Virus record (IMG/VR): IMGVR_UViG_3300050821_001428
Coordinates: 80,268 to 144,267 of that record
Reading direction: 5' to 3' (one strand)
Source: a virus
Length of the DNA stretch: 64,000 bases
Made by a program: the position numbers and the translations under genes. Below the pieces are notes generated by a model that saw nothing but the letters and a program-made list of their open reading frames with translations, searched no databases and had not been told where the DNA came from. This document shows, piece after piece, positions 39,012-63,850 of this stretch. The stretch's first letter is position 1; every line of letters begins with the position of its first letter.

Positions 39012-40100
39012 TTATAGCTGCCACTGAACAGGAGCACCTGTGGATAGACCACCGATGTCTAGCTTGCTCGGAGCCGCTGTCGAATCACTCTTTAGAACTC
39101 TTGCGATACCACGGGGGTTCAATACAAGCATTCCGATAAGTTCATCGAGTACCCATCCCTTGTAGAACTGCTCTACAAGGTGATTCTCTTCAACGTCTAG
39201 CGAGTACATGACTGGCATAACGCCGACGAACTCTGGCTCTGCGGTTAGGAAGACCTCGCCCTGAGGAACGATGATCGAACGTTGAATCTGGAACTCACCG
39301 AACGATGTGATCTTACCACCTGCAAACACCTCATCCTTGAACTTGAAGCCTGTAACATTCAGATCCCATGTGTAAAGGTCACGAATATCAACCGGGTGTG
39401 CTAGCACGCGGCGAGCCTCAAGCTGGTTGATTTCGATCTGCGATACAGCGGAGTAGAAGTCCGATGGCTCTAGTGGGTTACCTGCGCCTAGAAGAACGGT
39501 ATGCTCATTAGGAGCAACCGATGGACCGGCTGCGATACCAGAAGCAATACCACCCGTAGGTGCTAGACCAACTGTGCTACCCGACTGCAATGTCGAGCCA
39601 AGATTCACAATCGCCTGCTCTAGAAGAAGAATTAGACGAGCGTCCTCCTGCTTCTGAATTGCCTGACGAGTTTCATCCTGAGCATACTCAACCGCATTTA
39701 CACGTAGGAAGTAAAGGTCTTCCTTACGAATACGTGGGAAGGATGCGATACGGAATAGCTGTGGGAAAGCCTGCTTGCCTTCGAATGGAGTGATCTTGAC
39801 TTCAGCGTCAGTGCTGTTAAGCACGTAAGCTTGACCAAGGTCATCCAGAATATCATAAGGCATAAGTGGGCCACGCTCTAGAGTATCTTCCACAAGGACA
39901 TTACGTACAATACCCTCATAACGAAGACGGATCTGGATAGGACCAATCATTCCCTGACCAATTCGACGTAGAGCATTCTGCTTGTCGGCTAGAATAGCTT
40001 CCAAACGTGCTGACTTCTGCGTCTTGGAAAGCTTCGGAGAACCCGATAGCTTCATTTCATAATCTGCGGAACTAACCGCTTGTCTTGTAAATTCTGACAT
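39012..40100 (-). CDS. Major capsid protein (HK97 fold, Bxz1-like)
   Basis: 362 aa. LRRIGQGMIGPIQIRLRYEGIVRNVLVED...FRIASFPRIRKEDL...KQED...FGEFQIQRSIIVP...GWVLDELIGMLVLNPRG. AAGGA RBS and downstream terminator. Confidence 0.92.
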   Translation of the reverse strand: MSEFTRQAVSSADYEMKLSGSPKLSKTQKSARLEAILADKQNALRRIGQGMIGPIQIRLRYEGIVRNVLVEDTLERGPLMPYDILDDLGQAYVLNSTDAEVKITPFEGKQAFPQLFRIASFPRIRKEDLYFLRVNAVEYAQDETRQAIQKQEDARLILLLEQAIVNLGSTLQSGSTVGLAPTGGIASGIAAGPSVAPNEHTVLLGAGNPLEPSDFYSAVSQIEINQLEARRVLAHPVDIRDLYTWDLNVTGFKFKDEVFAGGKITSFGEFQIQRSIIVPQGEVFLTAEPEFVGVMPVMYSLDVEENHLVEQFYKGWVLDELIGMLVLNPRGIARVLKSDSTAAPSKLDIGGLSTGAPVQWQL

Positions 40101-40113
40101 AGTTATTATTTCC

Positions 40114-40713
40114 TTAGATCACTAGCTGGATTGTTAGAGCAGCATTGCTTTTACGTTCAATAACTCTTGCTACTGGAACGGAGCTAGTTGCTGCGGTACC
40201 GCCATCCGTGGTTAGAAGGCTTAGACGGCCATCTGTACCCGCGTAAAGTAGAACCTGCGAACCTGCACCCGCCGCTGCAATCTTCGCTGCTAGACCGGCA
40301 TCATTCCAAGCTGGAGCCAAAAGGTCATAGACTGAATCCGGACCCATCCATACGGAGATTTGATTATTCTGGCCTAGACCATCGAACGTTCCGCCGATCC
40401 ACTGACCTAGTAGACCCCAAGGCTGTACGCCTGCGGCACCGTTAGCTACTACTGCATTTGAGTTTTGATTCTTAACCATAACAGTTCCGGGAACAATGGA
40501 ACCATCATAAGTAAATGCGTTGGCGCTACGACTTAGCGGAGTCGTGTCGGTGCTAACAGGGACACGAATCGAGCCATCCGAATTTCTCAAAGACGGATCA
40601 AGGTAGGCCGCATAAGGGAAACCTTGTGTCTGTGCATAAGCAGGTCTAATTAGACGCTTTTGAGCCGTGATCGAGATATTGGTAGCTGCACCGGGTGAGT
40701 ATATGGTCTGCAT
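40114..40713 (-). CDS. Capsid decoration/minor capsid protein
   Basis: 199 aa, immediately upstream of the MCP. KRLIRPAYAQTQ...IVPGTVM...GTFD...VWMGPD. Confidence 0.75.
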   Translation of the reverse strand: MQTIYSPGAATNISITAQKRLIRPAYAQTQGFPYAAYLDPSLRNSDGSIRVPVSTDTTPLSRSANAFTYDGSIVPGTVMVKNQNSNAVVANGAAGVQPWGLLGQWIGGTFDGLGQNNQISVWMGPDSVYDLLAPAWNDAGLAAKIAAAGAGSQVLLYAGTDGRLSLLTTDGGTAATSSVPVARVIERKSNAALTIQLVI

Positions 40714-40870
40714 ATTTGTATATCAACCTTTGGTGTATTGTGCTCAAAAGCCCTAATCTACAGGGATTTTGAAACCATTTCAATTATTGTTTAGAGGGAG
40801 AAATATCAAAAAATAGTATGAGTAAGAAAAATTATAAGATATTCTTGGGGATTATGATAGTAATCAAAAC

Positions 40871-40910
40871 ACAAAGGGTCAGTGTAGAGAAATCTACACT
40901 GACCCTTTGT
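40871..40910. terminator. 18-bp perfect hairpin downstream of the protease/scaffold gene
   Basis: ACAAAGGGTCAGTGTAGA-GAAA-TCTACACTGACCCTTTGT. Confidence 0.75.
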
Positions 40911-40951
40911 AAGATATTCACGGCTCAATTACCAAATTACCGTATGATTAC

Positions 40952-43900
40952 TTACCTACCGAAAATAGCGGAATCCAATACATAGTCATCCATAGGAGCA
41001 TTGCTCGCAGCCGTGTGATCATTCGCTACGCGAGTGAAACCATTAGGTGCTGAGCTAAACTTGCCGAACATAGACGGAACCTTAGTTAGACCAGCGGTGC
41101 GGTGCTGTGCAATCTTAGCCAGACCAGCAGTCTTAACCTTACTTAATGATTCAATCTGTGCTAATACTACAGTTTCATCAGTATTATCGAGAGTAGCAAT
41201 ACGATTGAACTTTGCATCAACCGGGGATAAACCTAATTCAATTTCTAGTTCTGCTAGCTTGATAGATGAGATACGCACAGAGCCGGTGTGAAGCTTCACG
41301 TCAGGCGTAGGTACTCCACCAAACTCCATCTTATCCTTGGTGGTAGGATCTTGCTGCTTCAGTACGCCATTTCCGTCAGTACCGCTCCAAGTTGTTGTCG
41401 GACCAGAGTTATTGGCGGGAGTAGTCTGATGCTCAAGTAGATTGACGCGCTTATACGAGTCAGTCGCCACCGAATCAGTGGGCTGAACTCCCTGAACCGC
41501 TGAACCTCCCTGGGCAACAGGCTTGTTACCCTGCTGTTCATTCTGTTCTAACGTGTTATCGTCGTAAGAATAACGAGCTTGTGCATATGCATCTTGTGCC
41601 TGCTTGACAGCGGCATAATAAGCATTTGCAGCCTTTACTCCATCTTCGGTTGCTGGGAACGGGTCGCTGGTCACCGGATCAGTAATACCCTTTGCGGTAC
41701 CATCCGAATCGCCAAAGGTCTTAGTTGGACCAGAATCTTCAGTTGTCTTATCGGTATTGAAACCGGAATCATCGCTCTTTGGATCAGCGGTCGTAAGGGT
41801 TTCGGTCTTATCAGGCTCGACACCCTCGACACCCGTACCACCAATACCGGTTACATCAATTTGCTTCTGTGCAGTCGAAGCTGCTTCGTTTGATGCTTCA
41901 TCGAAACCACCAACACCGACAACATCAATGCGCTCCTTAGCGGAGGTGCCGTCAGGCGGGGTAGCTCCATCAGCAATCTTGGTATTACTCATAGATTCTC
42001 CTAAATGATTATGATTGTGATTGCGTTGTGCAGTTGCCATTAGACGTTGTGCAGTCAGCATTGCTGAGGTAATAGGCGTTCTCTGATCATTCAGAATAAC
42101 CTGATTACTTGGTTGATTGGTTACAATAGTATTAGGCTGCAAAACAGGGTTTTCAACCTTGTTAATTCTTGCAGCGGTCTTTTCTGTTACTAATGGAGTC
42201 CAACTCATTCTATTATTTACATTGGCGGTGGGTTGCTGTTTATTAGGCATTTGTCCGATTGGTGCCTGAGTTTGTGGACCAGCAGCAGTTTCTTCTTGAG
42301 TCTTCATCTCGTCACGAATTTGTTGTGCCTTTTGTAGATCGGGGTTGTCAAAATCCTTAGGACTTTGGACAAACCCACACACATCACAAGTTTCACCTTC
42401 CATTTGCGCCCCACAATTATGCACTAAAGCGCCCTCTACAACATATGTATGATCTACATCAACCTCTAGATTGTAAACATATCCATCATATGGTATTTCT
42501 TGAATCGAAGAAATCTTAGAAAGATTATATCCGCCAAATGCCCATTTGTTTTTGCCATACTTGGTTGAATAATCACAATTTGGATTAACTTTATAAGCAT
42601 TTTCTACCTGATACGTTATCTTTTTATTCAATGGGTATGTGGTAGTAATTGAAGGCTTATAACAATTAATACGATTACCATACTCTGCCACTTGTAGAGC
42701 TAATGTTCTTGATGTCTGCTTAAGGTTACCCTTTTTATCATGGCCATCTCCATTTAATACTCCTTCAATAATATATTGAATTTTATTATCAGGTAAGAGC
42801 ATTAATTCAGCCGGTATGATCTTATTATGAGAATGTTTACCAATCCAAGCAGGGAACCACCTAGCCAACACAGTGCTACCTACTACTACCCATATACTAT
42901 TAGGCTTATTAGGAACGGTGTAGAGCGTAGGATGATATCCTAATTCAGTAAATATCCTTATTAGACGATCTTGATATTCTGTTTCCTTACGATGTAAAGC
43001 GAAATTAATCTCTCGTTTATTATTGCTACCCTCGGCTATATACATACCAATAGCCCATAAGAAATCTGGAGTTAATTCAAACTCGGTTGGTCCTAAAGTA
43101 CGAGATCCAGATTTAATACCGATTTTACCTCGATAAATTTGACTTGCTATATGGCGCGAAACACCCGTAAGTTCCCCGATACGTTTCCATCCCAAATGAT
43201 CTACCTCACGCAACATCTTAATTTGAGGCTTGATATCAGAATAATCTACATATTCGTTACCCCTAAATTGCTCCGGTACAGATACAGTTGTGATATCACG
43301 AACAATGCTAGGACCAACATGCACCAAATAATTCTGATTTGTTAAAGACGATGCAGACTGGAAATGTAAATGATGATTTTCTTCAAATGACTGTGATTTG
43401 TCGCAGACGCCGGGGGCGCACTTTTGATGATGATCACCTGTTTGAGCAAGAGTATAAAATGGGTGATCAGGAGTAGCAATAACAGGTTGAGTAAATAAGC
43501 CAGAATCAATTTTGATGGCATTACCCGTAAATTTATTCTCCATCACATTGAGGACGGGATGGAAATGACCATCTCCGGTTAATACCTTGGTACCCATCTT
43601 AATCATCTCAATAGGTTCATACCCATTTTCAGTGCGTACCAATGTACCGGGTGCAAAGCAAATAGGACAGATATGTTCATCTCTCAATGTGTCGATATCG
43701 TCTGGGGCATGTACCTTCATTGACTGTGGAAGCTCGTTTTCGGAAGTATGTACGTGTGACCAACGAGGGTCATTCTGAGTGACTTGATTAGGAATCGCTT
43801 CAGGACCACCATGTAGTTCCTGATCGTAGATACCACCGGGAGGGGTTGGACGTGCAGGAGATGGAGAACCAATCGGTAATCCATTTTCATCTACTTCTTC

Positions 43901-44920
43901 ATTCTGCTTCATGAAGTATGGTAGCTGAACGCCCTGTTCGTCCAAATGAGGAACACCTTGATTATACTGGCCATAACTCGGATCTTCAAACTCCTGATAT
44001 GTCCCGTCAATACCTTGTGTATGTGGGGCAAATTTGTCACGGTCGTCAGGATGTATGATCCCTGGACCATTCGGATCATATTGACCCTCAGCTACAGGAT
44101 TATAATAGTTATTATCCCATCTACCACCATCTCGACCCGAAGCAATAATTTCCTTAGTTAAAGCTGTCTCGTCTGCTGGATTAAAGACACCGGAGATTTC
44201 AAAAAATTGAACACCACCAACATTTTCATAACTCTTCTTTTTGATCTTCTGACCAGAAGCGGTCTTATAATCATGTTCATGACCCTTAAGCTTCACATGT
44301 GAGCAGAATTCAGCAGCAGTATGCGCTTTATTGCCACAATGTGAACATGTAGAGAATTCACAATTACAACCCATAGAGAAACCGTCAATATGACCTAGCT
44401 TTACTGCATTAGCAAACTTAGGATAGCTCTTGGCATCAATCTCTAGCAGTAATTCAATCTCACAAGCAGGTAGATGTGAAGAATCTACTTCTCTAGATGA
44501 CCAATATGGATCAAGGTCGGCCGTTTTAGCATCTAAGACACGGAACTTAGAATCAACAATCATACCTCTAGTCTTCTTTGGATCACCGTTATTGTGATCG
44601 ACAAAGATAGGCTTATTCATAAAGGTAGCAAAGCCATACTTCTGATTACCGTTAGAAGCTTCTAGTGTGAAACCGTCTGTCGAATGGTGCTTTGCTAGAA
44701 TGTCAGGAGATCCAGCTAACTCTACCGTAGGCCAGCCGTCATGATTCTGATTTATGCGCGAACTGATAGAACGGATTCTTACATACAGAAAATCATCGTC
44801 TGTACGGAAGTCGTTATATTCCGACATCTTATTTAGGGAAGCGGTGTAGATGCGATCCTTAGATCCCTTGAGGTCTAAAACGTCGGCAATCTCGGCTGAT
44901 GCATATTTGGTCAGGCTCAT
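40952..44920 (-). CDS. Prohead (capsid maturation) serine protease fused to scaffold, intein-containing
   Basis: NQNHDGW, IFVDHNN (His), GFSMGC (Ser), CSHC..FCSH, FFEISGVFNPAD. Low-complexity scaffold-like C-terminus. Lies upstream of the capsid genes. Confidence 0.88.
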   Translation of the reverse strand: MSLTKYASAEIADVLDLKGSKDRIYTASLNKMSEYNDFRTDDDFLYVRIRSISSRINQNHDGWPTVELAGSPDILAKHHSTDGFTLEASNGNQKYGFATFMNKPIFVDHNNGDPKKTRGMIVDSKFRVLDAKTADLDPYWSSREVDSSHLPACEIELLLEIDAKSYPKFANAVKLGHIDGFSMGCNCEFSTCSHCGNKAHTAAEFCSHVKLKGHEHDYKTASGQKIKKKSYENVGGVQFFEISGVFNPADETALTKEIIASGRDGGRWDNNYYNPVAEGQYDPNGPGIIHPDDRDKFAPHTQGIDGTYQEFEDPSYGQYNQGVPHLDEQGVQLPYFMKQNEEVDENGLPIGSPSPARPTPPGGIYDQELHGGPEAIPNQVTQNDPRWSHVHTSENELPQSMKVHAPDDIDTLRDEHICPICFAPGTLVRTENGYEPIEMIKMGTKVLTGDGHFHPVLNVMENKFTGNAIKIDSGLFTQPVIATPDHPFYTLAQTGDHHQKCAPGVCDKSQSFEENHHLHFQSASSLTNQNYLVHVGPSIVRDITTVSVPEQFRGNEYVDYSDIKPQIKMLREVDHLGWKRIGELTGVSRHIASQIYRGKIGIKSGSRTLGPTEFELTPDFLWAIGMYIAEGSNNKREINFALHRKETEYQDRLIRIFTELGYHPTLYTVPNKPNSIWVVVGSTVLARWFPAWIGKHSHNKIIPAELMLLPDNKIQYIIEGVLNGDGHDKKGNLKQTSRTLALQVAEYGNRINCYKPSITTTYPLNKKITYQVENAYKVNPNCDYSTKYGKNKWAFGGYNLSKISSIQEIPYDGYVYNLEVDVDHTYVVEGALVHNCGAQMEGETCDVCGFVQSPKDFDNPDLQKAQQIRDEMKTQEETAAGPQTQAPIGQMPNKQQPTANVNNRMSWTPLVTEKTAARINKVENPVLQPNTIVTNQPSNQVILNDQRTPITSAMLTAQRLMATAQRNHNHNHLGESMSNTKIADGATPPDGTSAKERIDVVGVGGFDEASNEAASTAQKQIDVTGIGGTGVEGVEPDKTETLTTADPKSDDSGFNTDKTTEDSGPTKTFGDSDGTAKGITDPVTSDPFPATEDGVKAANAYYAAVKQAQDAYAQARYSYDDNTLEQNEQQGNKPVAQGGSAVQGVQPTDSVATDSYKRVNLLEHQTTPANNSGPTTTWSGTDGNGVLKQQDPTTKDKMEFGGVPTPDVKLHTGSVRISSIKLAELEIELGLSPVDAKFNRIATLDNTDETVVLAQIESLSKVKTAGLAKIAQHRTAGLTKVPSMFGKFSSAPNGFTRVANDHTAASNAPMDDYVLDSAIFGR
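42416..43660 (-). mobile_element. Intein with LAGLIDADG homing endonuclease (residues 421-835, 415 aa)
   Basis: Starts CFAPGTLV. Block B ATPDHPF. LAGLIDADG blocks IGMYIAEGS and EGVLNGDG. Ends VYNLEVDVDHTYVVEGALVHN, followed by Cys(+1). Confidence 0.93.
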
Positions 44921-44987
44921 TTATCTATTACCTTTACTACGAATGCATTGTTTTAAAGCCATATCGTATATTAATATGAAGGAAATC

Positions 44988-45170
44988 CTAGTTATCTTCT
45001 AAAAGATTAACTAGGACTGCCTCCTGATCATAAGTTATGCTTTTGAGTAAGGAAATAGCAGAACGCTCTTGACGTTCGTCAAGGCCCATAGCCTCGATCG
45101 CGCCAGCTAACCGACCGCGCAAGCGATTCATGCTATTATGTATCTCCTGCTCAAGCTCTTCGGAAGGCAT
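44988..45170 (-). CDS. Small helical hypothetical protein
   Basis: 60 aa, co-oriented, GAGGG RBS-like element. Confidence 0.6.
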   Translation of the reverse strand: MPSEELEQEIHNSMNRLRGRLAGAIEAMGLDERQERSAISLLKSITYDQEAVLVNLLEDN

Positions 45171-45180
45171 ATTACCCTCT

Positions 45181-46071
45181 TTAGTGCATTGAAATTACAG
45201 CACGCGCTATGCGCTCACCGGCTGGGTCAATAGCTTCTTCAAGCTGTGCTACTCGATATCCGCCACCAAGCTCGTTAGTTAAGGATACAAGCTCCGCATG
45301 AACATCACTAATTGGACGATTACCAATATGCTGTTCTGTAGGAATAGAAGCAACCTTACCTGCGACATGCTTCCATGGATGATTTTCACGTACATGGGAG
45401 AATGCAGGCGCTCCAATTGGAGTGCCGCCAGGAGGAACCTCGCCAGGCTTCAAAGCCTTTTCGTGGATAATGTGCTGATCGCCAGGGGCACCATGAGCGG
45501 AGCCACCATCTGGGCCAGCCGATCCACCAATGCCAGGAGGCGGTGGTGGAACGTTATCAGGACCACCGGGACCGAGAGGGGGCATACCGCCACTCGGGTC
45601 AGATGGGTCACCGCCAAGAGCATCTGATGGATTAGGAATACCAAGACCCTGGAAGAGAGCATCAAGCATTTGAATAATCTGCTCTTCCTTACCGCCCTTG
45701 CCATCCTTACCCTTAGATTTGTCACCCTCAGAGTCTCCTTCGGATGGAGGACCTTCTAGACCTTCTGTATCCTCAGGGCTTTCGCCCTCTGGGGATGGTG
45801 GACCTTCGGACTCGGGAGCAGTGTCATTTGGACCTTCGCTCTTTGGACCTGGGGCTTCTTCGGCTTGATCAGCAGGACCACCAAACGGTGAATCTGCATT
45901 AACTACTATTGCAGCTACCCAACGCCCCTCAAGCTGCTCAAGCGCATATGCAGCACCATTGGCAATCTTAGGACCAAACTTCTTGTTCTGGCGTAGTCCG
46001 GCCTCTGCTGCCTCGCGGGTAAATTCGCTGACTAGTGGACCTGGGACAAATTCTACGGAGTTTCCTGACAT
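45181..46071 (-). CDS. Pro/Gly/acidic head-associated protein
   Basis: 296 aa, low complexity, in the head operon. Confidence 0.6.
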   Translation of the reverse strand: MSGNSVEFVPGPLVSEFTREAAEAGLRQNKKFGPKIANGAAYALEQLEGRWVAAIVVNADSPFGGPADQAEEAPGPKSEGPNDTAPESEGPPSPEGESPEDTEGLEGPPSEGDSEGDKSKGKDGKGGKEEQIIQMLDALFQGLGIPNPSDALGGDPSDPSGGMPPLGPGGPDNVPPPPPGIGGSAGPDGGSAHGAPGDQHIIHEKALKPGEVPPGGTPIGAPAFSHVRENHPWKHVAGKVASIPTEQHIGNRPISDVHAELVSLTNELGGGYRVAQLEEAIDPAGERIARAVISMH

Positions 46072-46097
46072 ATCAAATCTTATCCTATTGTAAATCG

Positions 46098-46361: not shown

Positions 46362-46411
46362 ACTTTACTTTCCTTTTGATTGGGGTTTACTCGTTAATAT
46401 ACGGGAAAAGC

Positions 46412-49400
46412 CTAAAGGCCAAGAACAAGGTGTGAGTCAGGTACGTCCATCCCATTACCCTTGCGACGAGAGATATATTCTTCGTCCACGCGGTAATGAG
46501 TGTTATTCAGATCCAGTTGATCAAAATTACGTGCATGACCATGTTCATCAATCAGTGCCCGCTTCTCAGATTGACTGAAATTCTTACCGGCATTATGTTC
46601 CATCATTCCGCGTATAGATTGATTAGTTTCTAATCTTTCACGAATCTCAGCTAAACGTGGATCACGGGTTGCGATCTCTCTGATATTTCTAGAAGCACCA
46701 GAAGTATCTCGCGCTTCACGATGTGCGGCCATCTCAGCGGCGAAACTATCGTCGTCGCCATTCATTAACCAATCTAATTGTGAATTACCCTGATGTGAAC
46801 CATAGTCATTATCTTTGGTTTCCCATACAGCCGAGCATCGATAACACTCATGCATAGTCGTCGTAGGTGATGACATAAAATCGTTAGTATCATCACTGCC
46901 GCACTTATGACATGAACCATCATTGTTGTGAGCCGACGTTACACTATCATTAGGATACATATTTGTAGCCTCATCGGTGGTCGGTTCTGGGATTACATTG
47001 GCATTATCTAATGAGTGATTACCATGAGGTATCTCGTTATTGAAAGCTGCGCTGTTGGTAGCCGGTTCAAATGAATACTTACCGTTTTGTAGATCGCCTG
47101 GGCTAATTCTGAAATCAGCACTTGTACCGGCTAACTGGAGTTGTAACTCTCCGGGCTTCTTAGCAACTACTGTAACCTCATCTGGGACAGGTACGCCAGC
47201 GGTATATAATGAATACTGATCGCCCTCTTGAATTGGATGACCATTTGTATCTACCCAAGTACGCTGAGGATCTAGTGCCGGATTAGTTAGTGCTACCAAC
47301 CTCATTTGGCTTTGGCGGGCATTCTTTTCATGTAGCGGGAAATCGCGCTGACAACTATGACAATGACCATGCTTATGATCATCCTCGCCATCTCCACCAT
47401 CTAGGATTGAAGTAGTTGCCGAATCACAATAAGGGCAGCGATTAACAAGATTATTAGCATCGCCTGTATTAGCAATAACACCAGTATTAGATGGTAATTG
47501 TTTAATGTAACTCAATGTATATTGTGGGCCATAATGGGTCAACATATCATCAATCTGATGCTGTACCGCCATCGGTAGGTTACGACGTAGGTCAGCAATT
47601 GACCTTAATACACTCATGTCACTGAAAGCCGACATTGGTTGCATTGGCTGTCCGCCACCACCACCGGGTTGTGAGGGGTCTATAACAGGCATCGCACCAG
47701 GAGCCGATGGCATAGCACCAGGCGGCGCAGGTTGGGATTGACCAGGATCAATAAGCGGTGCAGTTGGCTGAGGATTCTGTTGAATTTCATTCATTAACCA
47801 GCCAAAGTTTTCAGGATGTTGATAAAGTTGCTGAATTAGTCCTTGTTGGCCATTTTGAGTTAGATACTGCGAAGCAGCTTCGAACTGCTCGGGGGTCTGT
47901 GGACCTTGATGACTTGCAGTAATCTGCTGTGGCATTGGCATCTGATTAGTAGGGAATCCTGCGCCTGCTGCTGGGAAACCACATTGTGGACATGTACCAT
48001 CGCCGTTAATAGTGCCTCCGCAATTAGGGCATGACTGTGGCTTGGCAAGTGATGGGTGTATATCGGAACCGGGCATAGCGCCTTGGCCTAGATTAGACGC
48101 AGGGGTTGGCACCGGGGCTAGAGGTACAGTCGCTAAACGAGACTGTGTTCGCTGATCTTTTCCCTTACCGTGCTGTTGAATAATAATTTCCATCATCTTT
48201 GGGCCATCCGGGTGTTCATTATTACGGTAGCCAGGATTTTCAGATTCTAATCTTTTATCTAGATCCTGAAGAATTGGATCATCGTCACCCGTAATACCAT
48301 TAGTGATATAATGAAGTAATAATGGCAGTACCCCTTGCATATGTTGAATAGCGGGTGAGTTAGGACCGAATCCATAACCCGGTGTTGCATCTCTTACGCC
48401 ATCCTCACCCGAAGCGCCAGAATCTTCATTATTTGGATTTTCGTGGTTAGATGGCGACTTATCACCATCATTAAATTCTTTCTGATCTTGCTCTTCCGGA
48501 TCATCGTGCTGTTCATCTACCGACTTGACTGAACCCGGGGTTTCTAGATCGGCTGTCTTTGCGGCTAATAATGCTGGAATATCGGCAGAATCAAATGAAC
48601 CAATGAGTTGATTGACAGGAGTCTGAGTTGGGAACATGCCACCGCCGGTTGCTCCACCACCCCCATTACCCCCAAACATGTTTGACGCCGCGTCTTGCGC
48701 TACGCCCTTTGCTGCACCACCGACTGCATGATTCATAAGAGTAGACGCAGCGCCACCAAGTAGAGAACCGTCAACAACACCGGCAGCCGCGTCAGCAGCA
48801 GGATTAAGTCCTAACTCACCAATAGCTAGTCCATTGGTGCCTAGTGCAAGAGCACCTTTGCCAATATCCTGAAGGATTCCTCCTAGACCAGCTACATGTT
48901 CATCGCTCCATAAAAGAGCATAAGGTTCTGTATTCAACGTTTCTCTACTATGAGTAGTGGTGTAATTATTCATATTTGTCGTTATATTAAATGTTTGATA
49001 TAATCCACCTGCATGCATCGGGCCTAAATTATTACGATCAATTTGATGTGTCACATCATCGGGTGAAATATTCTTAATACCCATTACGCCGTCATCACCT
49101 AGATTTGGTGCATATACAACACCCTTACCCCGACATGCTGGGCAACCTTGTCCAAAACACCCCGGACAGGTCATCTCGCCGGACGGACGCTGCCATTTAT
49201 AGTACATATCGGCGGGACCTTCTGGCAAACGCTCTTCGGCCTGTTTAACATGTGAATGTGTATATCCATCATATCCGTGAGTATCCGCATGAGGGCTTGG
49301 TTCACCATCTTGGCCTACAATAGTTCCTTCTGATAATGGGAATCCCGCTTGCCCTCTAGCTAGATCAGGATTATTACCTTGATTTGGAGCCATTGTTCCA

Positions 49401-49759
49401 GGCTCGCGTCTAATAGGAATACCAAATTGATCAATTTCCTGAGTATCCAGACCCGGAGCTTCGATATTACTTGTATATCCCAATCCCATTAGAGCAGCAA
49501 TAATAGAACCCTCACCTAGAGGATTACCACCCGTATCAGGTCCACCACCGGCCGGTGGCATATCCTTCATAATATTATCACCTGATAGATCATCGTGAAC
49601 AGGTGATGGTTGGGTACGGAAGAATCTCTTACCACCGCATTCCGAACAAGCCGATCCTGCGACATCACCAGCAGGGTCTAAGTCAAAATGTGCCGAACAA
49701 TCCCCACAAGTTACACCAATACCCGGGGACTGATTAAAAGCGTCAATACCATCAGGCAT
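46412..49759 (-). CDS. Large modular head protein with five CxxC-CxxC Zn ribbons
   Basis: CGDC/CSEC, CPGC/CPAC, CPNC/CPQC, CPYC/CHSC, CHKC/CYRC. C-terminal AGKNFSQSEKRALIDE..ARNFDQLDL..THY module. Confidence 0.7.
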   Translation of the reverse strand: MPDGIDAFNQSPGIGVTCGDCSAHFDLDPAGDVAGSACSECGGKRFFRTQPSPVHDDLSGDNIMKDMPPAGGGPDTGGNPLGEGSIIAALMGLGYTSNIEAPGLDTQEIDQFGIPIRREPGTMAPNQGNNPDLARGQAGFPLSEGTIVGQDGEPSPHADTHGYDGYTHSHVKQAEERLPEGPADMYYKWQRPSGEMTCPGCFGQGCPACRGKGVVYAPNLGDDGVMGIKNISPDDVTHQIDRNNLGPMHAGGLYQTFNITTNMNNYTTTHSRETLNTEPYALLWSDEHVAGLGGILQDIGKGALALGTNGLAIGELGLNPAADAAAGVVDGSLLGGAASTLMNHAVGGAAKGVAQDAASNMFGGNGGGGATGGGMFPTQTPVNQLIGSFDSADIPALLAAKTADLETPGSVKSVDEQHDDPEEQDQKEFNDGDKSPSNHENPNNEDSGASGEDGVRDATPGYGFGPNSPAIQHMQGVLPLLLHYITNGITGDDDPILQDLDKRLESENPGYRNNEHPDGPKMMEIIIQQHGKGKDQRTQSRLATVPLAPVPTPASNLGQGAMPGSDIHPSLAKPQSCPNCGGTINGDGTCPQCGFPAAGAGFPTNQMPMPQQITASHQGPQTPEQFEAASQYLTQNGQQGLIQQLYQHPENFGWLMNEIQQNPQPTAPLIDPGQSQPAPPGAMPSAPGAMPVIDPSQPGGGGGQPMQPMSAFSDMSVLRSIADLRRNLPMAVQHQIDDMLTHYGPQYTLSYIKQLPSNTGVIANTGDANNLVNRCPYCDSATTSILDGGDGEDDHKHGHCHSCQRDFPLHEKNARQSQMRLVALTNPALDPQRTWVDTNGHPIQEGDQYSLYTAGVPVPDEVTVVAKKPGELQLQLAGTSADFRISPGDLQNGKYSFEPATNSAAFNNEIPHGNHSLDNANVIPEPTTDEATNMYPNDSVTSAHNNDGSCHKCGSDDTNDFMSSPTTTMHECYRCSAVWETKDNDYGSHQGNSQLDWLMNGDDDSFAAEMAAHREARDTSGASRNIREIATRDPRLAEIRERLETNQSIRGMMEHNAGKNFSQSEKRALIDEHGHARNFDQLDLNNTHYRVDEEYISRRKGNGMDVPDSHLVLGL

Positions 49760-53690: not shown

Positions 53691-53726
53691 TCCAGCTATT
53701 GGGAAGCTATGATATGATTACACCAT

Positions 53727-54311: not shown

Positions 54312-54318
54312 CTAAATT

Positions 54319-57076: not shown

Positions 57077-57084
57077 TAGGTGAT

Positions 57085-57513
57085 ATGTGGCATGATATTA
57101 CTAATTACTTTATAAATTTCTTTCATTATATGTATATACCTCATGGTGCTCCTTTTTATCAGGGTAATATTTGGGGAAATGCATTTGTTATCGCCGTTAT
57201 TGCTCCCTTGGGGTACATATGGTCTAAAACAGAGTCTTTCCCATTGAAACCTATTCAACATGGTTTAAAACATCTACATGACAAGGTAGACGGATTACAT
57301 GCACGTCACGATGCACATGATGAAATTCAAGCTAAGATTGTGGCCAGCTTGGAATTACTACATGAGAAACACGATGTGCTATATAATAGTCTTCATAAGC
57401 GCCTGGATCACCGTGATAACGTATTGAAGGAAGTGAAGGAGAGTTTATCCCCTCCAATGCCTCCTTTACCTTCTGGGTCACATACGGATCAGCTTCCGTT
57501 AGATCAGAATTAA
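57085..57513 (+). CDS. Membrane protein with coiled coil (possible holin/lysis accessory)
   Basis: TM segment NIWGNAFVIAVIAPLGYIW, then a His/Leu heptad region. Confidence 0.55.
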   Translation: MWHDITNYFINFFHYMYIPHGAPFYQGNIWGNAFVIAVIAPLGYIWSKTESFPLKPIQHGLKHLHDKVDGLHARHDAHDEIQAKIVASLELLHEKHDVLYNSLHKRLDHRDNVLKEVKESLSPPMPPLPSGSHTDQLPLDQN

Positions 57514-57721
57514 AGATACGATAGCCATTTTGTATAGGTAACGCATAACCATCTATTCGTTCTGGGTGATGAATCTCAATATCAGAATGATGGGGGTAAT
57601 CGGCAGGATGTTTACCAGCCGCATCTAATATATGAACTTTAGATGTAGAAGGGTCGAAAGACCAAAGGTGCTGAAATGGTTTGATTTGGTTTTTTTGTGA
57701 ACTTTGGATGGTAGAAGTCAT
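57332..57721 (-). CDS. Hypothetical protein with its own promoter
   Basis: 129 aa. GGAG RBS and TGgTATAAT upstream. Confidence 0.55.
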   Translation of the reverse strand: MTSTIQSSQKNQIKPFQHLWSFDPSTSKVHILDAAGKHPADYPHHSDIEIHHPERIDGYALPIQNGYRIFNSDLTEADPYVTQKVKEALEGINSPSLPSIRYHGDPGAYEDYYIAHRVSHVVIPSWPQS

Positions 57722-57751
57722 TGGCTATTCTCCATTCGTAATATAACAATT

Positions 57752-57760
57752 ATTATACCA
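57752..57760 (-). promoter_or_regulatory. Extended -10 promoter
   Basis: Minus-strand TGgTATAAT upstream of the GGAG RBS and the ATG at 57721. Confidence 0.6.
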
Positions 57761-57781
57761 TGCATGACTTAATTAAAGACA

Positions 57782-60700
57782 ATGATAGTAAATCCAAAAT
57801 TTAGCATCAGTTTATCAGAGATACATGATGAAATTTGTCATCGCGGTTGGGAGATCATTAAATGCAAGTATGATAAGAAGACAGATCGTTATACCGCTCA
57901 TGCAAAGAACGAGTTAGATCAAGAGGTTGAAGCTTTTGGCAAGAATCCGAAGCAGGCTCTTGCAAATCTTCTAAATAATGTAGCTTATGAACATGCGAAG
58001 GGGATTCAAAGACTCGCACGTTGGAAGCAAACGTTCGAAGGGCAATTACTACAAATTGCTGAGGCATACTCTAAGGCTCCTGCCTACGAGAAGAAGGCTG
58101 CTGCTGCGTTTCTAGAACTTTCCGCCGAATGCGAATCTCGCGCTAAGGTTATACGTCAGCATATTCAGGTGACTACGGTCAATAATCCCGAACCATATCC
58201 GACTTCCGACAAGATGTATGACGATGTGCGTAAACGTCGCAAACTTGAGGTCAGCGCAGTAGCAGCGGATAATCATCCTATCTGGACAAGAGAACAAGTA
58301 GTTGACTATCGTATTTGCATTGACGTTCTAGGATTCACGGCGGCTAACGCTAATTGGGGTTGGGAAGGTACAAATTATGCGTTTGGTGCTTTTGCCGCAT
58401 TGTTGCCAGAGCTAGCCCAGGAAGCACTCTTTAGCGAGCTTGTAGGACAGACGGCATATGCAACTTATTATCGTGCCTATGGCCCAGCCAAGATTTGCCT
58501 TTTGACTAAGTTTATCGAAAAAGCGATGAGGGAAGAAAATCCTCATCGTGGTTTCCGTGGTATCCATCCCTCCCAGATGTTATTGCCTAGCGAGACTCCA
58601 GAGGCGAAGCAAAAAACTGCTGGTATTGCCAAGAAAACTAAGCCAAACGCCGATGGTTCGATGCCCTTTGACATTAATGATGGCTGGTCATCAACTCTAG
58701 AGAATATTCCAACTGTTCACTATCCGACTGAATTTAGCGACTTCTTTAATCTACGCGGCGCAAGCGATGTTTTAGATGGTCTACATACTGATTGGGCCGA
58801 AACTATTCACGATAATTCTGATAGTGCGCATATACGTCAAGAATGGCGTACATATAAGTTAGATGACCCTGAAGGAGCCTTACGTATTAAGCACGCTGTG
58901 GCGAATGCCATCAAGGGTGCATTATTACTAGAAGATAATACGCTAGGTCATGGGGCCGTTCAATATCAAGCTCTTCTTCACAAGGTGTCTGATGATCCAG
59001 AAGAGCTTATCAAAACGCTTAATGGGGCACGTTCTGAATGGAACGTTGAGCGTTTTGGTGAACATACTTCAGAAGAGCATCGCCCTTGGGCTATTGCTGA
59101 TGCTAAATCTGGCCAAATTCCCATGTTTGCATTAGCAAACTTGATTTATGAAAAGAATCCAGATATGAAGTTGATGGATGCTCATAAAGAAGCACAACGC
59201 ACTATCCATCAGATGTTAAGTCGATTCCATGAACAGGCCAAGGCTGAAGAAAATACAGATAATATACCAAAAGATGAGGCTGGCTGGCAGACCGAATCCA
59301 AGGCTATTGAAAAGCTCATGAAGTGGTTAGATATAACCACCGGTTCGCACGGTAAGTTTGATCATTGGATGGTCCCTGGACAACATGTGTCGGCTATCGA
59401 TCCTATTAAGCCGCATAAATATGACCCTGGCTACGATCAGTACGATAATCATAAAGTATTTAACCTTCAACGCTTCCCGGCGATACATGGCAAGCATATC
59501 CAAACAATTTCTAAGTTAATCAAAAGCCTTGATCAAATCGTAGAAGAGGCGTTAATTGACGTTCATAATCATGACGGCAAGGGGCACCATTTCCGTGCAT
59601 TTATAATGCACTTGGTTGATATTGATCCTAAGACCGTAGGTGTTATGTGGCTATTACTCGCTCCGTATACGTCGCAGCTTTCAATGATTGATGAAGAAAT
59701 GGCTGGTGCCCTTGGTCATCATGCGGAAGGTCGCGCTGCAAGGAATTATTTTCTTCATGAAAGAGAATTAATTGCTCACCGTGACGGTATGGGTCTAGCT
59801 CATATACCTTTGGGGCATTTTAATCTTGCGCTTAAAGGAGGCCACGTCGCAGGTGGGTCTAAGCAATCATCCGAAAACGACAAACACGATCATCAGGACT
59901 TAAGTAGCTTGCGTATTGAGAATCCTACGCCCGCCTGGAAGGTTAAACTAAAATCCCCCGGTGATCTTTTATATAACTTCTCTTTAACTCCCGATGTTGT
60001 CAAGCCTATTCAAGAGCATTGGAATAACACGGTAGCTACACAATTTGCGCCAGATGAGACTCCTACCAAGAGCCATCGTCCTGGCTTTATGATGATCGCT
60101 ACCAATCCTATTGAACGCAAGATGGCATCTAAGATGCAGGAATATCGCAACCTTGGTATGAGTGTGCAGGACGTATGGAATAAGATAGATGAACCAAGTG
60201 ATATAATTGACAAATGGACAAAAAATACAAACGATCTGACACAGAAGAATTTATCAAACAGTTGGAAAACAGCGGCAGAGATTTGGGAATCCTCACCAAT
60301 CACCCCGAATGGCCACACTATCGCTCACATAGAAAATGCTCCATCAATCAATTCGACCCAGGCCCCCTATCTGATGACGAGTGGATCAACGAATTTATCG
60401 AATGGTTACGTGAGCGCAGTGCATCCAACCTGGCTGAATCAATGGATTCAGCATAACGGACCATATTTAACCCATTATACCCCCAACCCTAATACCGTTC
60501 AGGATATATATCGTAATGGACTCATCCCAGCTTCGCAACTAGATCAAGATCAAAAATTTTATAGTGGAAAGTTAACTTCTAGACCTGATCATGTATATCT
60601 TCAGGGATCTATTCCGGCCCCAAACTTTTCAAATAATTATGTTGCTGTGGATTTACGTAAATTAGATCCGTCTAATCTCAATCCAGATGAGGATTCCTTA

Positions 60701-61888
60701 TTACATACCAATCACCCATTTGATGATATACCATATGGTAATGGACGTACCCCTGTAAATTTCCCTTACCAAAGTTATGGTCATTGGGCACATCAATATA
60801 ATCTAGCGCATCCAAAACATACAAGTTGGAGTTTAAATTCAATAGGTACTGTTGCACATCAAGGTATGATTACTCCAGATCAATTAACTCCAATGGCGCA
60901 AGTATATACTGATTTGCAACAAAATTGGCCACATGTATTATCCAATTATGGTCCCACCCATCGAGTACCTTACAATTCACGGTGGGATGATCTTGGCACT
61001 AAAGAATCTGCGCAACCGGGCTGGACAGACTTTTACCACGCTACACCACGCGCTAATAGAGAATCAATTCAAAATCTTGGTTTGATGGGCGAAAATGGCT
61101 CATCGCCATGGGGTGACACGACACGAAGTTGGGGGCAGCCTTATGGTAACTATTTCTTTGATAATCCAAATGATGCTGTGACATATGCAAATTCAGCGTA
61201 TAATCGGTTCAAGCGCGATGGGGCTGATGACTATGAGCGTCAGTATACTCAGGCCGAGCCGCCTCAGGGTTGGGGTAATCTAAATGATGATGAATATGAT
61301 CAATGGCATGAAGATAATCCTCCTACACAGAGAACAGAAGATCCTGAAGGCTGGGATGTTTGGAAGGTAAATACCCGAGGATTGAATATCAATCGTGACC
61401 CCGAAGCAAACCTAGTATCTCCTCGCAGTCCTCAGGATATTCATCCCGATATGAATAATAGCGATGCTCCGTGGGATGAGCAATTGGAAGATGCAATTAA
61501 TATGTATGGCGGTAGTCCTAATCGTTATTATACACAAGATCATATAGAACCGGAACGTGTACAGCTACATCAGCATATTCCAATGTGGCAAAACCATGAC
61601 GATGACGAATACGAATACGAATACGAATATGAGACACATCACCCGATGCATTGGGATGAGGCGCTGCTACATAGGCCAAAGTTCCCTGCACATAGCTCTA
61701 TTAAGACAGCCGATAAACTACACGATTTCTTAATGAATCCAAAGAGTCGTCCTGATACCAATTTAAATCCACATTGGAATCCCGACACACATAAGTACGA
61801 GAATGAGCTATATCAATCATCACCGCAATCGGTACCCCAACAGTTACCACAACCTATACAACCAGTACCGGGAGGGGCTTGGAGCTAA
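57782..61888 (+). CDS. Large multidomain protein: degenerate zincin-like and HhH-like domains plus two ADP-ribosyltransferase-fold domains
   Basis: ART-like 1: THYT..QDIYRNGL..RPDHVYL..GMITPDQL. ART-like 2: FYHAT..ESIQNLGL..GNYFFDNPNDA..WKVN..DHIEPERV. Confidence 0.7.
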   Translation: MIVNPKFSISLSEIHDEICHRGWEIIKCKYDKKTDRYTAHAKNELDQEVEAFGKNPKQALANLLNNVAYEHAKGIQRLARWKQTFEGQLLQIAEAYSKAPAYEKKAAAAFLELSAECESRAKVIRQHIQVTTVNNPEPYPTSDKMYDDVRKRRKLEVSAVAADNHPIWTREQVVDYRICIDVLGFTAANANWGWEGTNYAFGAFAALLPELAQEALFSELVGQTAYATYYRAYGPAKICLLTKFIEKAMREENPHRGFRGIHPSQMLLPSETPEAKQKTAGIAKKTKPNADGSMPFDINDGWSSTLENIPTVHYPTEFSDFFNLRGASDVLDGLHTDWAETIHDNSDSAHIRQEWRTYKLDDPEGALRIKHAVANAIKGALLLEDNTLGHGAVQYQALLHKVSDDPEELIKTLNGARSEWNVERFGEHTSEEHRPWAIADAKSGQIPMFALANLIYEKNPDMKLMDAHKEAQRTIHQMLSRFHEQAKAEENTDNIPKDEAGWQTESKAIEKLMKWLDITTGSHGKFDHWMVPGQHVSAIDPIKPHKYDPGYDQYDNHKVFNLQRFPAIHGKHIQTISKLIKSLDQIVEEALIDVHNHDGKGHHFRAFIMHLVDIDPKTVGVMWLLLAPYTSQLSMIDEEMAGALGHHAEGRAARNYFLHERELIAHRDGMGLAHIPLGHFNLALKGGHVAGGSKQSSENDKHDHQDLSSLRIENPTPAWKVKLKSPGDLLYNFSLTPDVVKPIQEHWNNTVATQFAPDETPTKSHRPGFMMIATNPIERKMASKMQEYRNLGMSVQDVWNKIDEPSDIIDKWTKNTNDLTQKNLSNSWKTAAEIWESSPITPNGHTIAHIENAPSINSTQAPYLMTSGSTNLSNGYVSAVHPTWLNQWIQHNGPYLTHYTPNPNTVQDIYRNGLIPASQLDQDQKFYSGKLTSRPDHVYLQGSIPAPNFSNNYVAVDLRKLDPSNLNPDEDSLLHTNHPFDDIPYGNGRTPVNFPYQSYGHWAHQYNLAHPKHTSWSLNSIGTVAHQGMITPDQLTPMAQVYTDLQQNWPHVLSNYGPTHRVPYNSRWDDLGTKESAQPGWTDFYHATPRANRESIQNLGLMGENGSSPWGDTTRSWGQPYGNYFFDNPNDAVTYANSAYNRFKRDGADDYERQYTQAEPPQGWGNLNDDEYDQWHEDNPPTQRTEDPEGWDVWKVNTRGLNINRDPEANLVSPRSPQDIHPDMNNSDAPWDEQLEDAINMYGGSPNRYYTQDHIEPERVQLHQHIPMWQNHDDDEYEYEYEYETHHPMHWDEALLHRPKFPAHSSIKTADKLHDFLMNPKSRPDTNLNPHWNPDTHKYENELYQSSPQSVPQQLPQPIQPVPGGAWS

Positions 61889-62049
61889 TGCATTATCATT
61901 GGAAGACAGGACAACCTTGTAATTGTGGTTTTCATAAGCCAGTAGCAAACGAAGCACAATGGATTACGCCAGAATATACACCAAGAGGTGATGACAGCCG
62001 TGAAATTGTAGGACAGCGGCGGGATAATACAGATGAATCAGATAACTAG
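61888..62049 (+). CDS. 53-aa protein with H/C cluster (not in ORF track)
   Basis: MHYHWKTGQPCNCGFH...DESDN*. TAATG coupling upstream; the next ATG lies 1 nt after its stop. Confidence 0.55.
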   Translation: MHYHWKTGQPCNCGFHKPVANEAQWITPEYTPRGDDSREIVGQRRDNTDESDN

Positions 62050-63850
62050 TATGTCGGCTGATGAACTGCATGTGTCTCTTAAGGTACCACGTTATGCAGC
62101 TAAGGAGATATTTAGATGGGCCAGAGAACAGCAATGGCCCGAAGGCACCCAGCTTGAAGATTTTAATGAGTATCACTGCACGCTGCTCTACTCGCCAAAT
62201 GGATATCAATATTGGTCAGATGCCTGGTTTATTCCAAAGCTTGAAGTCTTAGAAGCACAGGTAGTAGGATTTGATAACTTTGGTGACGGCGAGGGGGAAC
62301 AGGTAGCTTATGTATTACGTCTACATGGTGAGGATCTTCAAGCCGAGGCGGAGAAGCTTCAATCGGAAGCTAGTCACGTCGGGGTCATCGACAATTTTCT
62401 AGGCGCTTATAAGCCACATATTACCATAGGTTACGGGCCAGTTAAGGTCAATGTTACACCGCCTGATATGTTATTAGATTTAGGTCCGGTAGAAGTCTCG
62501 CCACCGCGTCTAGAACTAACAGATACACCATCATTAGAAGGTATCGCCAAGGATTTACACCAAGAATATCAAGACGGTACATCGCCAACTGAAATTGTCA
62601 TGTATGCAGCAAATCGCCTCAATGTCGCAGGGTTCCCTGACGACGATATCACTATACAGGCAGCCCTAGAGTCTTGGCAGATCCTTTACCCTGAAGATGT
62701 TATTTTACAGCATACGGCGGAATGGGCTTGGAATTCTGGCTTTGAACATTTAATAGATCAATATTCACCTCATGGACTTTCATGTCTTTATGACGAAACC
62801 CCAAATATGATTGATATCTCACATATAGAGGTAGATCCTGCTCGTCGTAATACGGGAATTGGGTCTAAATTCATGGAAGCCGCCCATCAATATGCCCAGA
62901 GTGTTGGTAAGCAACTGAATATCTCAAGGGTGGACAATGCCCCATTCTTTAATAAATTTCCATTTTTACAGCAACAAGACGCTAAGACATTCGTTACCGC
63001 ATCGATATGGGATGAGACTAACAATTGGCGACCAAGCTCTCTTATAGCCGCACAGCATAGTAGTCAAAATATAATGCCTAATGATCATTCGTATTATCAT
63101 GCGGCTTTAAACCAATTTACACCAAATCCGAATAGTGGTGTCCATAAATCATTTATTAATACAGAAACACCTAATCAGCTTTATATCAAGCCAGAACAAC
63201 CAGATGACTATCATCGCGATTCTCCGATTAAAGAGCGTGGAGCATTTATATTAGGTAACGCTATGGGCATGAATGTGCCACAAGCAGTGGTTAGACCTGT
63301 GGTAATACCACAACATCAGTTGTATGCAACAAGTCGTGAGGCATTTCAAAAGAGAAACCCGCGACATCATCCGGATAAACCCATTAGAGCGTATGCGTCG
63401 GTACATCATGGCGTTCCTAATAGCCAGACATTGGAAGATTATCTATATGACCAGGGTATTTATAGTCACGAACTGCAATCACAGTGGATGGCTACGCAAC
63501 CCGAGGAACGTCGTAAGACGTTATTATTTGACCAAGTTATTGGTAATCAAGACAGACATAGTGGTAATCTATTAATAGATAATAATAATCAGTGGCATCA
63601 GATCGATCATGGAGGGGCATTCAGAAATGTGACCGATGATGGAGCAGATCATTTCTTTTTTAATAAAGATTTTTATGATCAACCACTAACGAATGAAGAA
63701 CGTCAGCGAGTACAAGCCGCGCGTCAGGCTATTGACAATCCCAAACATTCTGCTATATTTAGTCATCCCGACCTACATCCAAAGGTCTTAAATCAGCGCA
63801 TTAATACGCTGCTCAATACAGGGAAATTTATCACACCACCCGTATCATAA
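62033..63850 (+). CDS. Three-enzyme fusion: 2H phosphoesterase (Acb1-like) + GNAT acetyltransferase + HipA/PI3K-like kinase (start probably 62051)
   Basis: 2H: YHCTLLY and PHITIGY (two HxT). GNAT: ISHIEVDPARRNTGIGSKFM. Kinase: LYIKPE..ERGAF..VP..DQVIGNQDRHSGNLL..IDHG. Confidence 0.82.
   Translation: MNQITSMSADELHVSLKVPRYAAKEIFRWAREQQWPEGTQLEDFNEYHCTLLYSPNGYQYWSDAWFIPKLEVLEAQVVGFDNFGDGEGEQVAYVLRLHGEDLQAEAEKLQSEASHVGVIDNFLGAYKPHITIGYGPVKVNVTPPDMLLDLGPVEVSPPRLELTDTPSLEGIAKDLHQEYQDGTSPTEIVMYAANRLNVAGFPDDDITIQAALESWQILYPEDVILQHTAEWAWNSGFEHLIDQYSPHGLSCLYDETPNMIDISHIEVDPARRNTGIGSKFMEAAHQYAQSVGKQLNISRVDNAPFFNKFPFLQQQDAKTFVTASIWDETNNWRPSSLIAAQHSSQNIMPNDHSYYHAALNQFTPNPNSGVHKSFINTETPNQLYIKPEQPDDYHRDSPIKERGAFILGNAMGMNVPQAVVRPVVIPQHQLYATSREAFQKRNPRHHPDKPIRAYASVHHGVPNSQTLEDYLYDQGIYSHELQSQWMATQPEERRKTLLFDQVIGNQDRHSGNLLIDNNNQWHQIDHGGAFRNVTDDGADHFFFNKDFYDQPLTNEERQRVQAARQAIDNPKHSAIFSHPDLHPKVLNQRINTLLNTGKFITPPVS

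Follow-up and report, generated by a model that had tools for sequence, protein, structure and literature searches.

The head-assembly genes of a phage related to the Cluster C mycobacteriophages encode proteins that carry a short motif, [K/R/H]-[T/V/L/I]-A, with K-T-A (KTA) as its archetype. The phage is known from the viral record IMGVR_UViG_3300050821_001428, a single contig of 144,267 bp, and the stretch analysed here, called the window, is its terminal 64 kb (64,000 nucleotides (nt), positions 80,268 to 144,267). Judging from the sequences and from analogy with other viruses, we hold it on balance probable that the link between this motif and the head genes is real and that the motif marks the cleavage sites of a prohead serine protease of HK97-like kind, which forms one chain with its scaffold in the layout of herpesvirus assemblin. 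The motif is taken as a cut site because this layout matches the herpesvirus protease-scaffold plan. An earlier note on the same DNA had gone further. It proposed that a broad [K/R/H/V]-x-A code punctuates strings of anti-host enzymes, which would be packaged in the prohead as polyproteins, cut by the protease at domain junctions and injected as single-domain effectors. Is the motif a protease code? And, if it is, does it extend to the multi-enzyme proteins?

The head block comprises genes for the capsid protein, a cement protein, an intein-split protease-scaffold of 1322 amino acids (aa), small head proteins and a 1115-aa zinc-ribbon-rich protein. Its features, in window coordinates and with an arrow for each candidate cut, are these:

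39012..40100, minus strand: major capsid protein, 362 aa (phrog_2522, expectation value (E) 7e-94; 54% identity to Cluster C capsid proteins, e.g. that of Myrna)
40077-40085, minus strand: candidate capsid N-terminal cut site R-Q-A↓V, residues 6-8
40114..40713, minus strand: capsid cement/decoration protein, 199 aa (PF23968 Phage_cement_3, E 5e-14)
40955..42415, minus strand: scaffold domain, residues 836-1322 of the 1322-aa precursor
41126-41134, minus strand: KTA, scaffold residues 1263-1265
42173-42181, minus strand: KTA, scaffold residues 914-916
42416..43660, minus strand: intein, residues 421-835 of the precursor (Hint_2 and Intein_splicing matches)
44108..44920, minus strand: prohead serine protease domain, residues 1-271 of the precursor (phrog_18299)
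44258-44266, minus strand: KTA, protease domain residues 219-221
44519-44527, minus strand: KTA, protease domain residues 132-134, kept as [HSE]-K-T-A-[AS] in most of 31 homologues
45181..46071, minus strand: 296-aa Pro/Gly/Glu-rich head-block protein
46412..49759, minus strand: 1115-aa zinc-ribbon-rich protein, syntenic with Myrna gp96
46589-46597, minus strand: H-N-A↓G, residues 1055-1057 of the 1115-aa protein, followed by a tail of residues 1058-1115
48551-48559, minus strand: KTA, residues 401-403 of the 1115-aa protein

All motif instances listed in the earlier note are present within 1-3 residues of the positions it gave, including GFSMG in the protease and the start of the capsid protein. 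The broad code itself is at chance level. In its loose definition (Ala with K, R, H, V or I at -2 or -3) it covers 1418 of the 3320 Ala residues of the genome, or 43%. Because it falls once per 31 residues, a site near any domain junction is expected by chance. Counts of tighter definitions were tested against composition shuffles. For [KRH]-x-A, only the protease-scaffold (20 observed, 11.8 expected, p about 0.008) and the 296-aa protein (7 and 2.9) exceed the shuffles. The corresponding counts are 11 and 8.8 for the 1115-aa protein, 5 and 3.3 for the capsid protein, and 17 and 15.9 and 8 and 5.4 for two multi-enzyme proteins of 1368 and 605 aa, and [KRHV]-x-A is likewise without enrichment in these four.

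With the proteins grouped, [KRH]-x-A reaches a z score (z) of 3.6 in the head block, 2.7 in the head block without the scaffold and 1.9 in all other open reading frames (ORFs). The narrow motif separates the groups more sharply, with 24 observed in the head block vs 7.0 expected (z 6.7), 11 vs 4.0 there without the scaffold (z 3.6) and 94 vs 82 in all other ORFs. The motif exceeds chance in the narrow form only, and chiefly in the head block. The genome has 18 copies of KTA, and 8 of the 18 fall in three proteins with 8.7% of the proteome between them (scaffold 4, 1368-aa protein 3, 1115-aa protein 1); of the remaining ten, two belong to Walker A boxes. When the tripeptides of six candidate proteins were scanned blind, KTA came first against shuffles, with 8 observed and 1.04 expected.

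Further evidence comes from relatives. A scan of viral contigs gave 80 loci with capsid proteins 49-90% identical to that of the window, and from these a scaffold set of 32 sequences was assembled, made up of the window protein and 31 distinct, full-length, intein-free homologues. In this set KTA is found 99 times (11.7±3.6 expected), at 18 alignment positions and 1-6 times per protein, and some homologues have tandem copies in variable stretches. The other five orderings of K, T and A are at or below expectation (4-20 observed, about 11.5 expected). RTA (53 vs 7.8), HTA (27 vs 4.5) and KVA (30 vs 11) are in excess, as are KIA and KLA, and the residue after the motif (P1') varies among G, D, A and S. 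In an unbiased ranking of all tripeptides by the number of conserved positions at which they recur, KTA is first with 9, and the overlapping TAS and TAA come next. The scaffold family has 16 conserved [KRH]-x-[AS] alignment columns, vs 1-8 for five control motifs. The density that the earlier note saw in this protein is thus borne out both in the window and among its homologues.

The strongest site is VKTA↓G, which lies about 58-60 residues before the scaffold C-terminus in 26 of the 32 sequences, with K/R-T/V-A there in nearly all. The tail beyond it holds more sites, of the types R-T-A and x-T-A, as well as an acidic stretch, and its D-S-A-L-F-like terminus is conserved. In the window protein KTA 1263-1265 is followed by K-I-A, R-T-A, R-V-A and H-T-A within the final 60 residues, and the chain ends D-S-A-I-F-G-R.

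Could such counts be without function, produced by the kinship of a few conserved stretches together with a choice of motif and proteins made after the fact? The broad motif is at chance, the Poisson probability for KTA in the single genome (1.4e-5) is borderline once about 8000 tripeptides are corrected for, and KTA is only third among 137 tripeptides when the six candidates are compared with the rest of the genome. Homologue counts are moreover inflated by common ancestry. However, the spread of KTA over 18 alignment positions, variable regions and tandem copies included, its first rank among all tripeptides for recurrence, and a signal that reaches the unrelated 1115-aa family and Myrna make this explanation very improbable.

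In the capsid protein, the N-terminal R-Q-A↓V pointed out in the earlier note is well conserved. Of about 45 distinct homologue N-termini, nearly all read R-[QKT]-A and then [VI]-[AS]-S at residues 6-10. The 296-aa protein has S-E-F-T-R-x-A at residues 15-21 (46009-46029, minus strand), which equals capsid residues 2-8 (40077-40097, minus strand) at 6 of 7 positions. Its homologues keep [TS]-[RK]-x-x-A near residues 15-20. When the N-termini of the two proteins were compared for co-variation across phages, only this loose [TS]-[RK]-x-x-A was common to them, and the window match may be partly chance for that reason. The cement family has no motif enrichment (KTA 2 vs 4 expected).

The 1115-aa protein matched no Pfam or PHROG family and nothing usable in a protein atlas, and no enzyme or effector domain was recognised in these searches. 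The earlier note's view of it as an effector polyprotein thus lacks its effectors, but part of its list of sites holds up, as relatives have K-T-A, K-V-A and R-T-A where the window protein has its sites 541 and 820. At sites 401 and 613 a small residue is kept immediately ahead of conserved blocks. The family has KTA 9 times vs 1.8 expected (z 5.4) and RTA 9 times. At the 1055 site homologues have [KRH]-x-[ASG]↓G-[KR], about 58 residues before the C-terminus, and the family terminus, D-x-D-L-F-L-G-like, resembles the scaffold end (both D-x-x-L-F). These sequences make it probable that the 1115-aa protein belongs to the head interior and is a substrate of the protease. Counted by family across the related loci, KTA stands at 150 vs 18 expected for the scaffold, 11 vs 2.2 for the 1115-aa protein and 3 vs 3.6 for the tail sheath.

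One further family with the motif lies outside the head block. A 261-aa protein is encoded directly upstream of the tail sheath gene (17849-18634, minus strand), and its homologues keep Y-I-K-T-A at residues 14-18, the family having 9 KTA where 1 is expected. The window protein itself is without the motif.

The protease assignment rests on residues 95-256 of the 1322-aa protein, which match the head maturation protease family phrog_18299 with E 3.3e-15. H109 and S182, the latter within GFSMG (residue 180), are invariant in 20 homologues of 35-60% identity, which speaks for conservation and not for activity. The intein begins at Cys421 and ends with His-Asn at 834-835, with Cys836 following. 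Its 415 residues include a homing-endonuclease-like insert, and the zinc ribbon that it splits (CxxC...CxxC) stands between protease and scaffold. Orthologues of 705-900 aa are without the insert. Several homologues of 1000-1230 aa may hold inteins at different places, one of them having a Hint match within its first 280 residues.

The closest parallel is with herpesviruses, in which protease-scaffold fusions are cut after Ala at the R and M sites, the M site freeing the scaffold from the capsid protein, and some viruses have internal sites as well (PMC4498786). Like assemblin/pUL26, the phage protein has an N-terminal serine protease in frame with a C-terminal scaffold, candidate sites with Ala before the cut (P1), one conserved site some dozens of residues short of the C-terminus, with a tail behind it that probably binds the capsid, and additional candidate sites within the protease domain. 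Unlike assemblin, it has K, R or H at P3 (V, L or I in herpesviruses), many more candidate sites and an intein; no sequence similarity between the two was detected.

Among phages, the proteases of T4 (gp21, L/I-x-E) and of phiKZ and SPN3US (A-x-E; PMC10052503) use tripeptide codes on capsid, scaffold and internal proteins. The present code would likewise be of tripeptide type and act on capsid, scaffold or core, and internal head proteins, and large proteins are predicted to be cut repeatedly here as they are there. It differs in having Ala and not Glu at P1, in candidate targeting tails that are C-terminal where those phages have N-terminal propeptides, and in the protease-scaffold fusion. 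With the HK97-type proteases (Peptidase_S78) it shares a Gly-x-Ser-x-Gly type motif, an invariant His and a gene upstream of the capsid gene, but the Pfam match is only faint and the window protease is fused to a scaffold of about 490 residues.

Myrna gp96-gp99 offer the nearest comparison by sequence. The gene order, large protein, protease-scaffold, cement and capsid protein, is the same (from the protease-scaffold to the capsid gene it is also kept across about 60 related loci), the capsid proteins are 54% identical, and the C-terminal tails are similar. Sites that match those of the window are R-T-A↓G(-R) in gp96, R-T-A↓S in gp97 and R-F-A↓K in gp99. In contrast to the Cluster C module, the window phage has 44% G+C (about 65% in Cluster C mycobacteriophages), has the intein, and has its portal and terminase genes elsewhere in the genome.

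Under the favoured explanation, the fused protease would recognise [K/R/H]-[T/V/L/I]-Ala and cut after Ala. It would cleave itself, fragment the scaffold and remove from it the last 58 or so residues, whose conserved end, acidic and hydrophobic, is probably what holds the capsid protein. The capsid protein would lose its 8 N-terminal residues, and the 1115-aa protein would be cut as well, its similar C-terminal tail lying behind a matching site. Scaffold and 1115-aa protein would each bind the capsid through a C-terminal handle of about 58 residues, taken off at maturation.

Several results weigh against this. The Pfam Peptidase_S78 match is at E 0.085 and in 1 of 20 homologues only, and a search with the protease profile against solved structures matched nothing. 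Two of the KTA lie inside the protease domain. The conserved-column test did not rise above control motifs in the 1115-aa family (3 columns), the core of the 1368-aa protein (4) or the capsid protein (5). In the literature no usable virion proteome or N-terminal sequence turned up, either for this clade or for Cluster C phages. No preference for Ala at P1 is known among HK97-type proteases.

Alternatively, K/R-T-A might be a docking element that joins the scaffold and the 1115-aa protein to the shell, to the portal or to each other, with the multi-enzyme proteins acting in the cytoplasm as early or middle products. Conservation and recurrence prove selection and not the type of function, the strongest site is in the C-terminal tail, the part that probably makes contact with the capsid protein, and several scaffold sites are in helix-prone, Ala-rich stretches. 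Yet one would not look for a docking element right at the N-terminus of the capsid protein itself or inside the protease domain, a small P1 with a variable P1' is typical of protease sites, and the layout mirrors the R, M and internal sites of herpesviruses. We therefore rate docking as improbable, and return to cleavage in asking how far the code extends.

Two genes for multi-enzyme proteins lie 8 kb from the head block, on the opposite strand:

57782..60211, plus strand: conserved core, residues 1-810 of the 1368-aa protein
58613-58621, plus strand: KTA, core residues 278-280
60119-60127, plus strand: K-M-A↓S, core residues 780-782
60266..60274, plus strand: KTA, residues 829-831, in the linker that leads from the core to the first domain added to it
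60410..60970, plus strand: domain A, residues 877-1063, ADP-ribosyltransferase (ART) fold
61013..61711, plus strand: domain B (residues about 1078-1305), which may be ART-like, and after it KTA 1308-1310 (61703-61711)
62033..63850, plus strand: 605-aa polyvalent protein (Pfam and PHROG matches)

Both proteins belong to a class already known, the "polyvalent proteins", which combine disparate activities in one chain. Here the 605-aa protein joins a 2H phosphoesterase/Acb1-like domain (residues 12-141), a GNAT (248-309) and a HipA/PI3K-like kinase (about 359-548), and the 1368-aa protein joins the ART-fold domain A to domain B. The published polyvalent proteins also have ART, 2H, GNAT and kinase domains in single chains with heavy shuffling, and the 1368-aa core matches polyvalent domains by fold. 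A zincin-like peptidase, common but not obligatory in the class, is absent from the window proteins (PMC5512222). The zincin-like domain that the earlier note saw in the 1368-aa protein was rejected. There is no HExxH in this or the 605-aa protein and no peptidase family at E up to 1, and the H-D-x-x-G-H stretch of the 1368-aa family is no zincin motif either; both His are missing in the window protein. Without such a peptidase, the capsid protease must do the processing if the polyvalent proteins are processed at all. A related contig (L083) has a ClpP-family protease gene (7348-8097, plus strand) adjoining ThyX, upstream of a gene whose product is homologous to the core alone of the 1368-aa protein; at this place in the window the protease gene is absent.

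The sole family match of the 1368-aa protein is phrog_3170, of unknown function, and protein searches of GenBank phages with both halves gave no matches. Its 23 homologues are mostly of 800-880 aa and span residues 1-810 only, and the core ends at about 805-815. They have a conserved K-T-A-A-[SV] at the 780-782 position, about 55 residues before their end. The AlphaFold model of the core has a predicted local distance difference test (pLDDT) score of 71, and the segments below 50, which are 20% of the core, hold KTA-278, H-V-S-A-535, K-M-A↓S-780 and KTA-829. Model confidence is also low over residues 803-840 and 45 residues beyond. A Foldseek search of the core against the Protein Data Bank found nothing at E up to 0.001, apart from a weak match of a small N-terminal domain to double-stranded RNA-binding domains. 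Core fold matches were to large polyvalent-protein domains of phages and ART-PolyVal-like proteins. A separate observation concerns residues 11-78 (57782-58020, plus strand), an alpha-beta-beta-beta-alpha unit with weak fold matches to dsRNA-binding domains and T7 Gp1.2 (E about 0.5-1).

An exhaustive HMMER search with residues 829-1368 resolved two mobile domains, A and B. Domain A is modelled with pLDDT above 90. It matches DarT1 (Z 6.3) and KptA/Tpt1 (Z 5.6), and the top 25 rows are for the most part proteins of ART fold. It is found alone and within proteins of up to 2300 aa. Domain B has PARP, Tox-ART-HYD1 and Arr families as language-model neighbours (scores 0.88-0.91), which is a lead only. 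Of the two ART-like domains in the earlier note, the first is therefore well founded and the second is possibly of this kind. HMMER matches to domain B stop at query positions 476-486, which is KTA-1308. Here begins a 20-residue linker (residues 1306-1325; 61697-61756, plus strand) that starts [IV]-K-T-A-D-K. It recurs with 95% identity in a homologue (P0004, residues 946-965) and with 76% at residue 677 of L091 957-5633, a protein of 1558 aa from a complete phage related to this one, with unrelated flanking domains at each occurrence, and by its sequence looks like a mobile cassette.

The description of both proteins as strings of shuffled enzyme modules agrees with their domain matches and with the mosaic architectures of relatives. 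The core is found alone, with 2H (L043) or with PcfJ (P0004), and P0003 has a ParB-like insert directly after Q-K-T-A-G of the core. Others combine Fic with domain A (P0024), or 2H with domain B, GNAT and kinase (P0025).

How likely is it, then, that the 1115-, 1368- and 605-aa proteins are all packaged, cut at motif junctions and injected as single-domain enzymes? The enzyme domains and their shuffling suit such a model. All three KTA of the 1368-aa protein stand in low-confidence linkers, at borders that homologues define independently, as the earlier note had placed them. Three is vs 0.33 expected, and the chance of any non-scaffold protein of the genome having at least three is 0.025. In a set of 14 polyvalent proteins from related phages there are 11 KTA vs 2.7 expected (8 vs 2.4 without the window protein), although the 11 are not independent because some of the sites are homologous to one another. 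Several are at junctions, and in a related phage one lies directly ahead of a 2H domain, the position of the 605-aa start. Polyvalent proteins are predicted to be packaged and injected as a multi-enzyme class (Iyer et al. 2017, PMC5512222), and solo GNATs occur amid the late structural genes of a Cluster C phage (PMC5512222). The core N-terminal domain matches by fold a protein that also has a phage head morphogenesis domain, and in L043 the core-2H gene is on the strand of the head block and just upstream of it.

Other results count against it. The enrichment proposed by the earlier note for head-region and polyprotein ORFs stands for the head block and fails for the 1368- and 605-aa proteins taken together, in which z is 0.8 for [KRH]-x-A and 0.6 for the narrow motif (6 observed vs 4.8 expected). 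P0002, the closest homologue of the 1368-aa protein (78% identity), has zero KTA, and in P0137 a KTA lies within a strand of the 2H domain. The 605-aa protein is also without KTA, and its two proposed sites, H-T-A 227-229 and V-T-A 321-323, have no K or R at P3. A homologue (P0138) lacks exactly the GNAT module between these sites, but only Ala or Ser at P1 is kept at both sites and K/R at P3 is not. In the window, the polyvalent genes run opposite to the head genes, come after genes for isochorismatase, dCTP deaminase and ThyX, and are far from the portal gene; in L083, too, the polyvalent gene follows isochorismatase and ThyX genes and is on the other strand from the head genes. No common capsid-targeting tail was seen on the polyvalent proteins. 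The 1115-aa protein has no recognised enzyme domain.

The full model is accordingly judged unlikely. By its sequence the 1368-aa protein is a plausible but weaker candidate for a protease substrate; cleavage of the 605-aa protein is not supported, and the case for packaging of the two, which leans on analogy, is weak. A form centred on the processing is about as doubtful as the full model. In it the capsid maturation protease, and not a built-in zincin, would process the polyvalent effectors of this clade, and portable K-T-A linkers, including the 20-residue cassette, would mark where modules are inserted and where they are released in the head for injection.

The source is a 144-kb myovirus and a distant relative of the Cluster C mycobacteriophages; a DNA search of the head block against GenBank phages gave zero matches. 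The protease-scaffold gene is 240 nt upstream of the cement gene, with the capsid gene next. The left part of the window holds tail sheath, baseplate and fibre genes, and the portal and large terminase genes are about 90 kb distant on the contig. In a search for an upstream word that would set late genes apart from the polyvalent genes, no 8-mer occurred more than 4 times in 73 upstream regions, and visual inspection gave no class. The large terminase ORF (1538 aa; genome 34931-39547, minus strand; L085 6332-10948), which is outside the window, has additional matches to HNH endonuclease and other families and probably holds at least one intein or inserted endonuclease. The family match of a 1004-aa ribonucleotide reductase ORF is split in two stretches. 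A 709-aa Gly-rich protein (50485-52614, plus strand) has two long repeats (at about residues 123 and 408), each starting G-D-G-S-D-G-V-V-T-F, and weak tail-fibre PHROG matches; it is probably a fibre or beta-helix protein. Directly upstream of the 1368-aa gene, a 129-aa ORF (57332-57721, minus strand) and a 142-aa ORF (57085-57513, plus strand) overlap, and at most one is likely to be real.

Multi-domain injected phage proteins and protease-processed internal head proteins, as in T4 and phiKZ-like phages, are already known. If K/R-T-A is a cut site, it would define a third specificity class of tailed-phage prohead proteases, beside L/I-x-E and A-x-E, and the parallel with herpesvirus assemblin would bear on the common ancestry of these assembly systems. 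Internal head proteins and mature ends would become predictable from sequence, both in a large uncultured clade and in the culturable Cluster C. Should the polyvalent proteins also be substrates, the motif would explain how multi-enzyme chains are dismantled without a peptidase of their own, and it might be used for loading chosen proteins into capsids.

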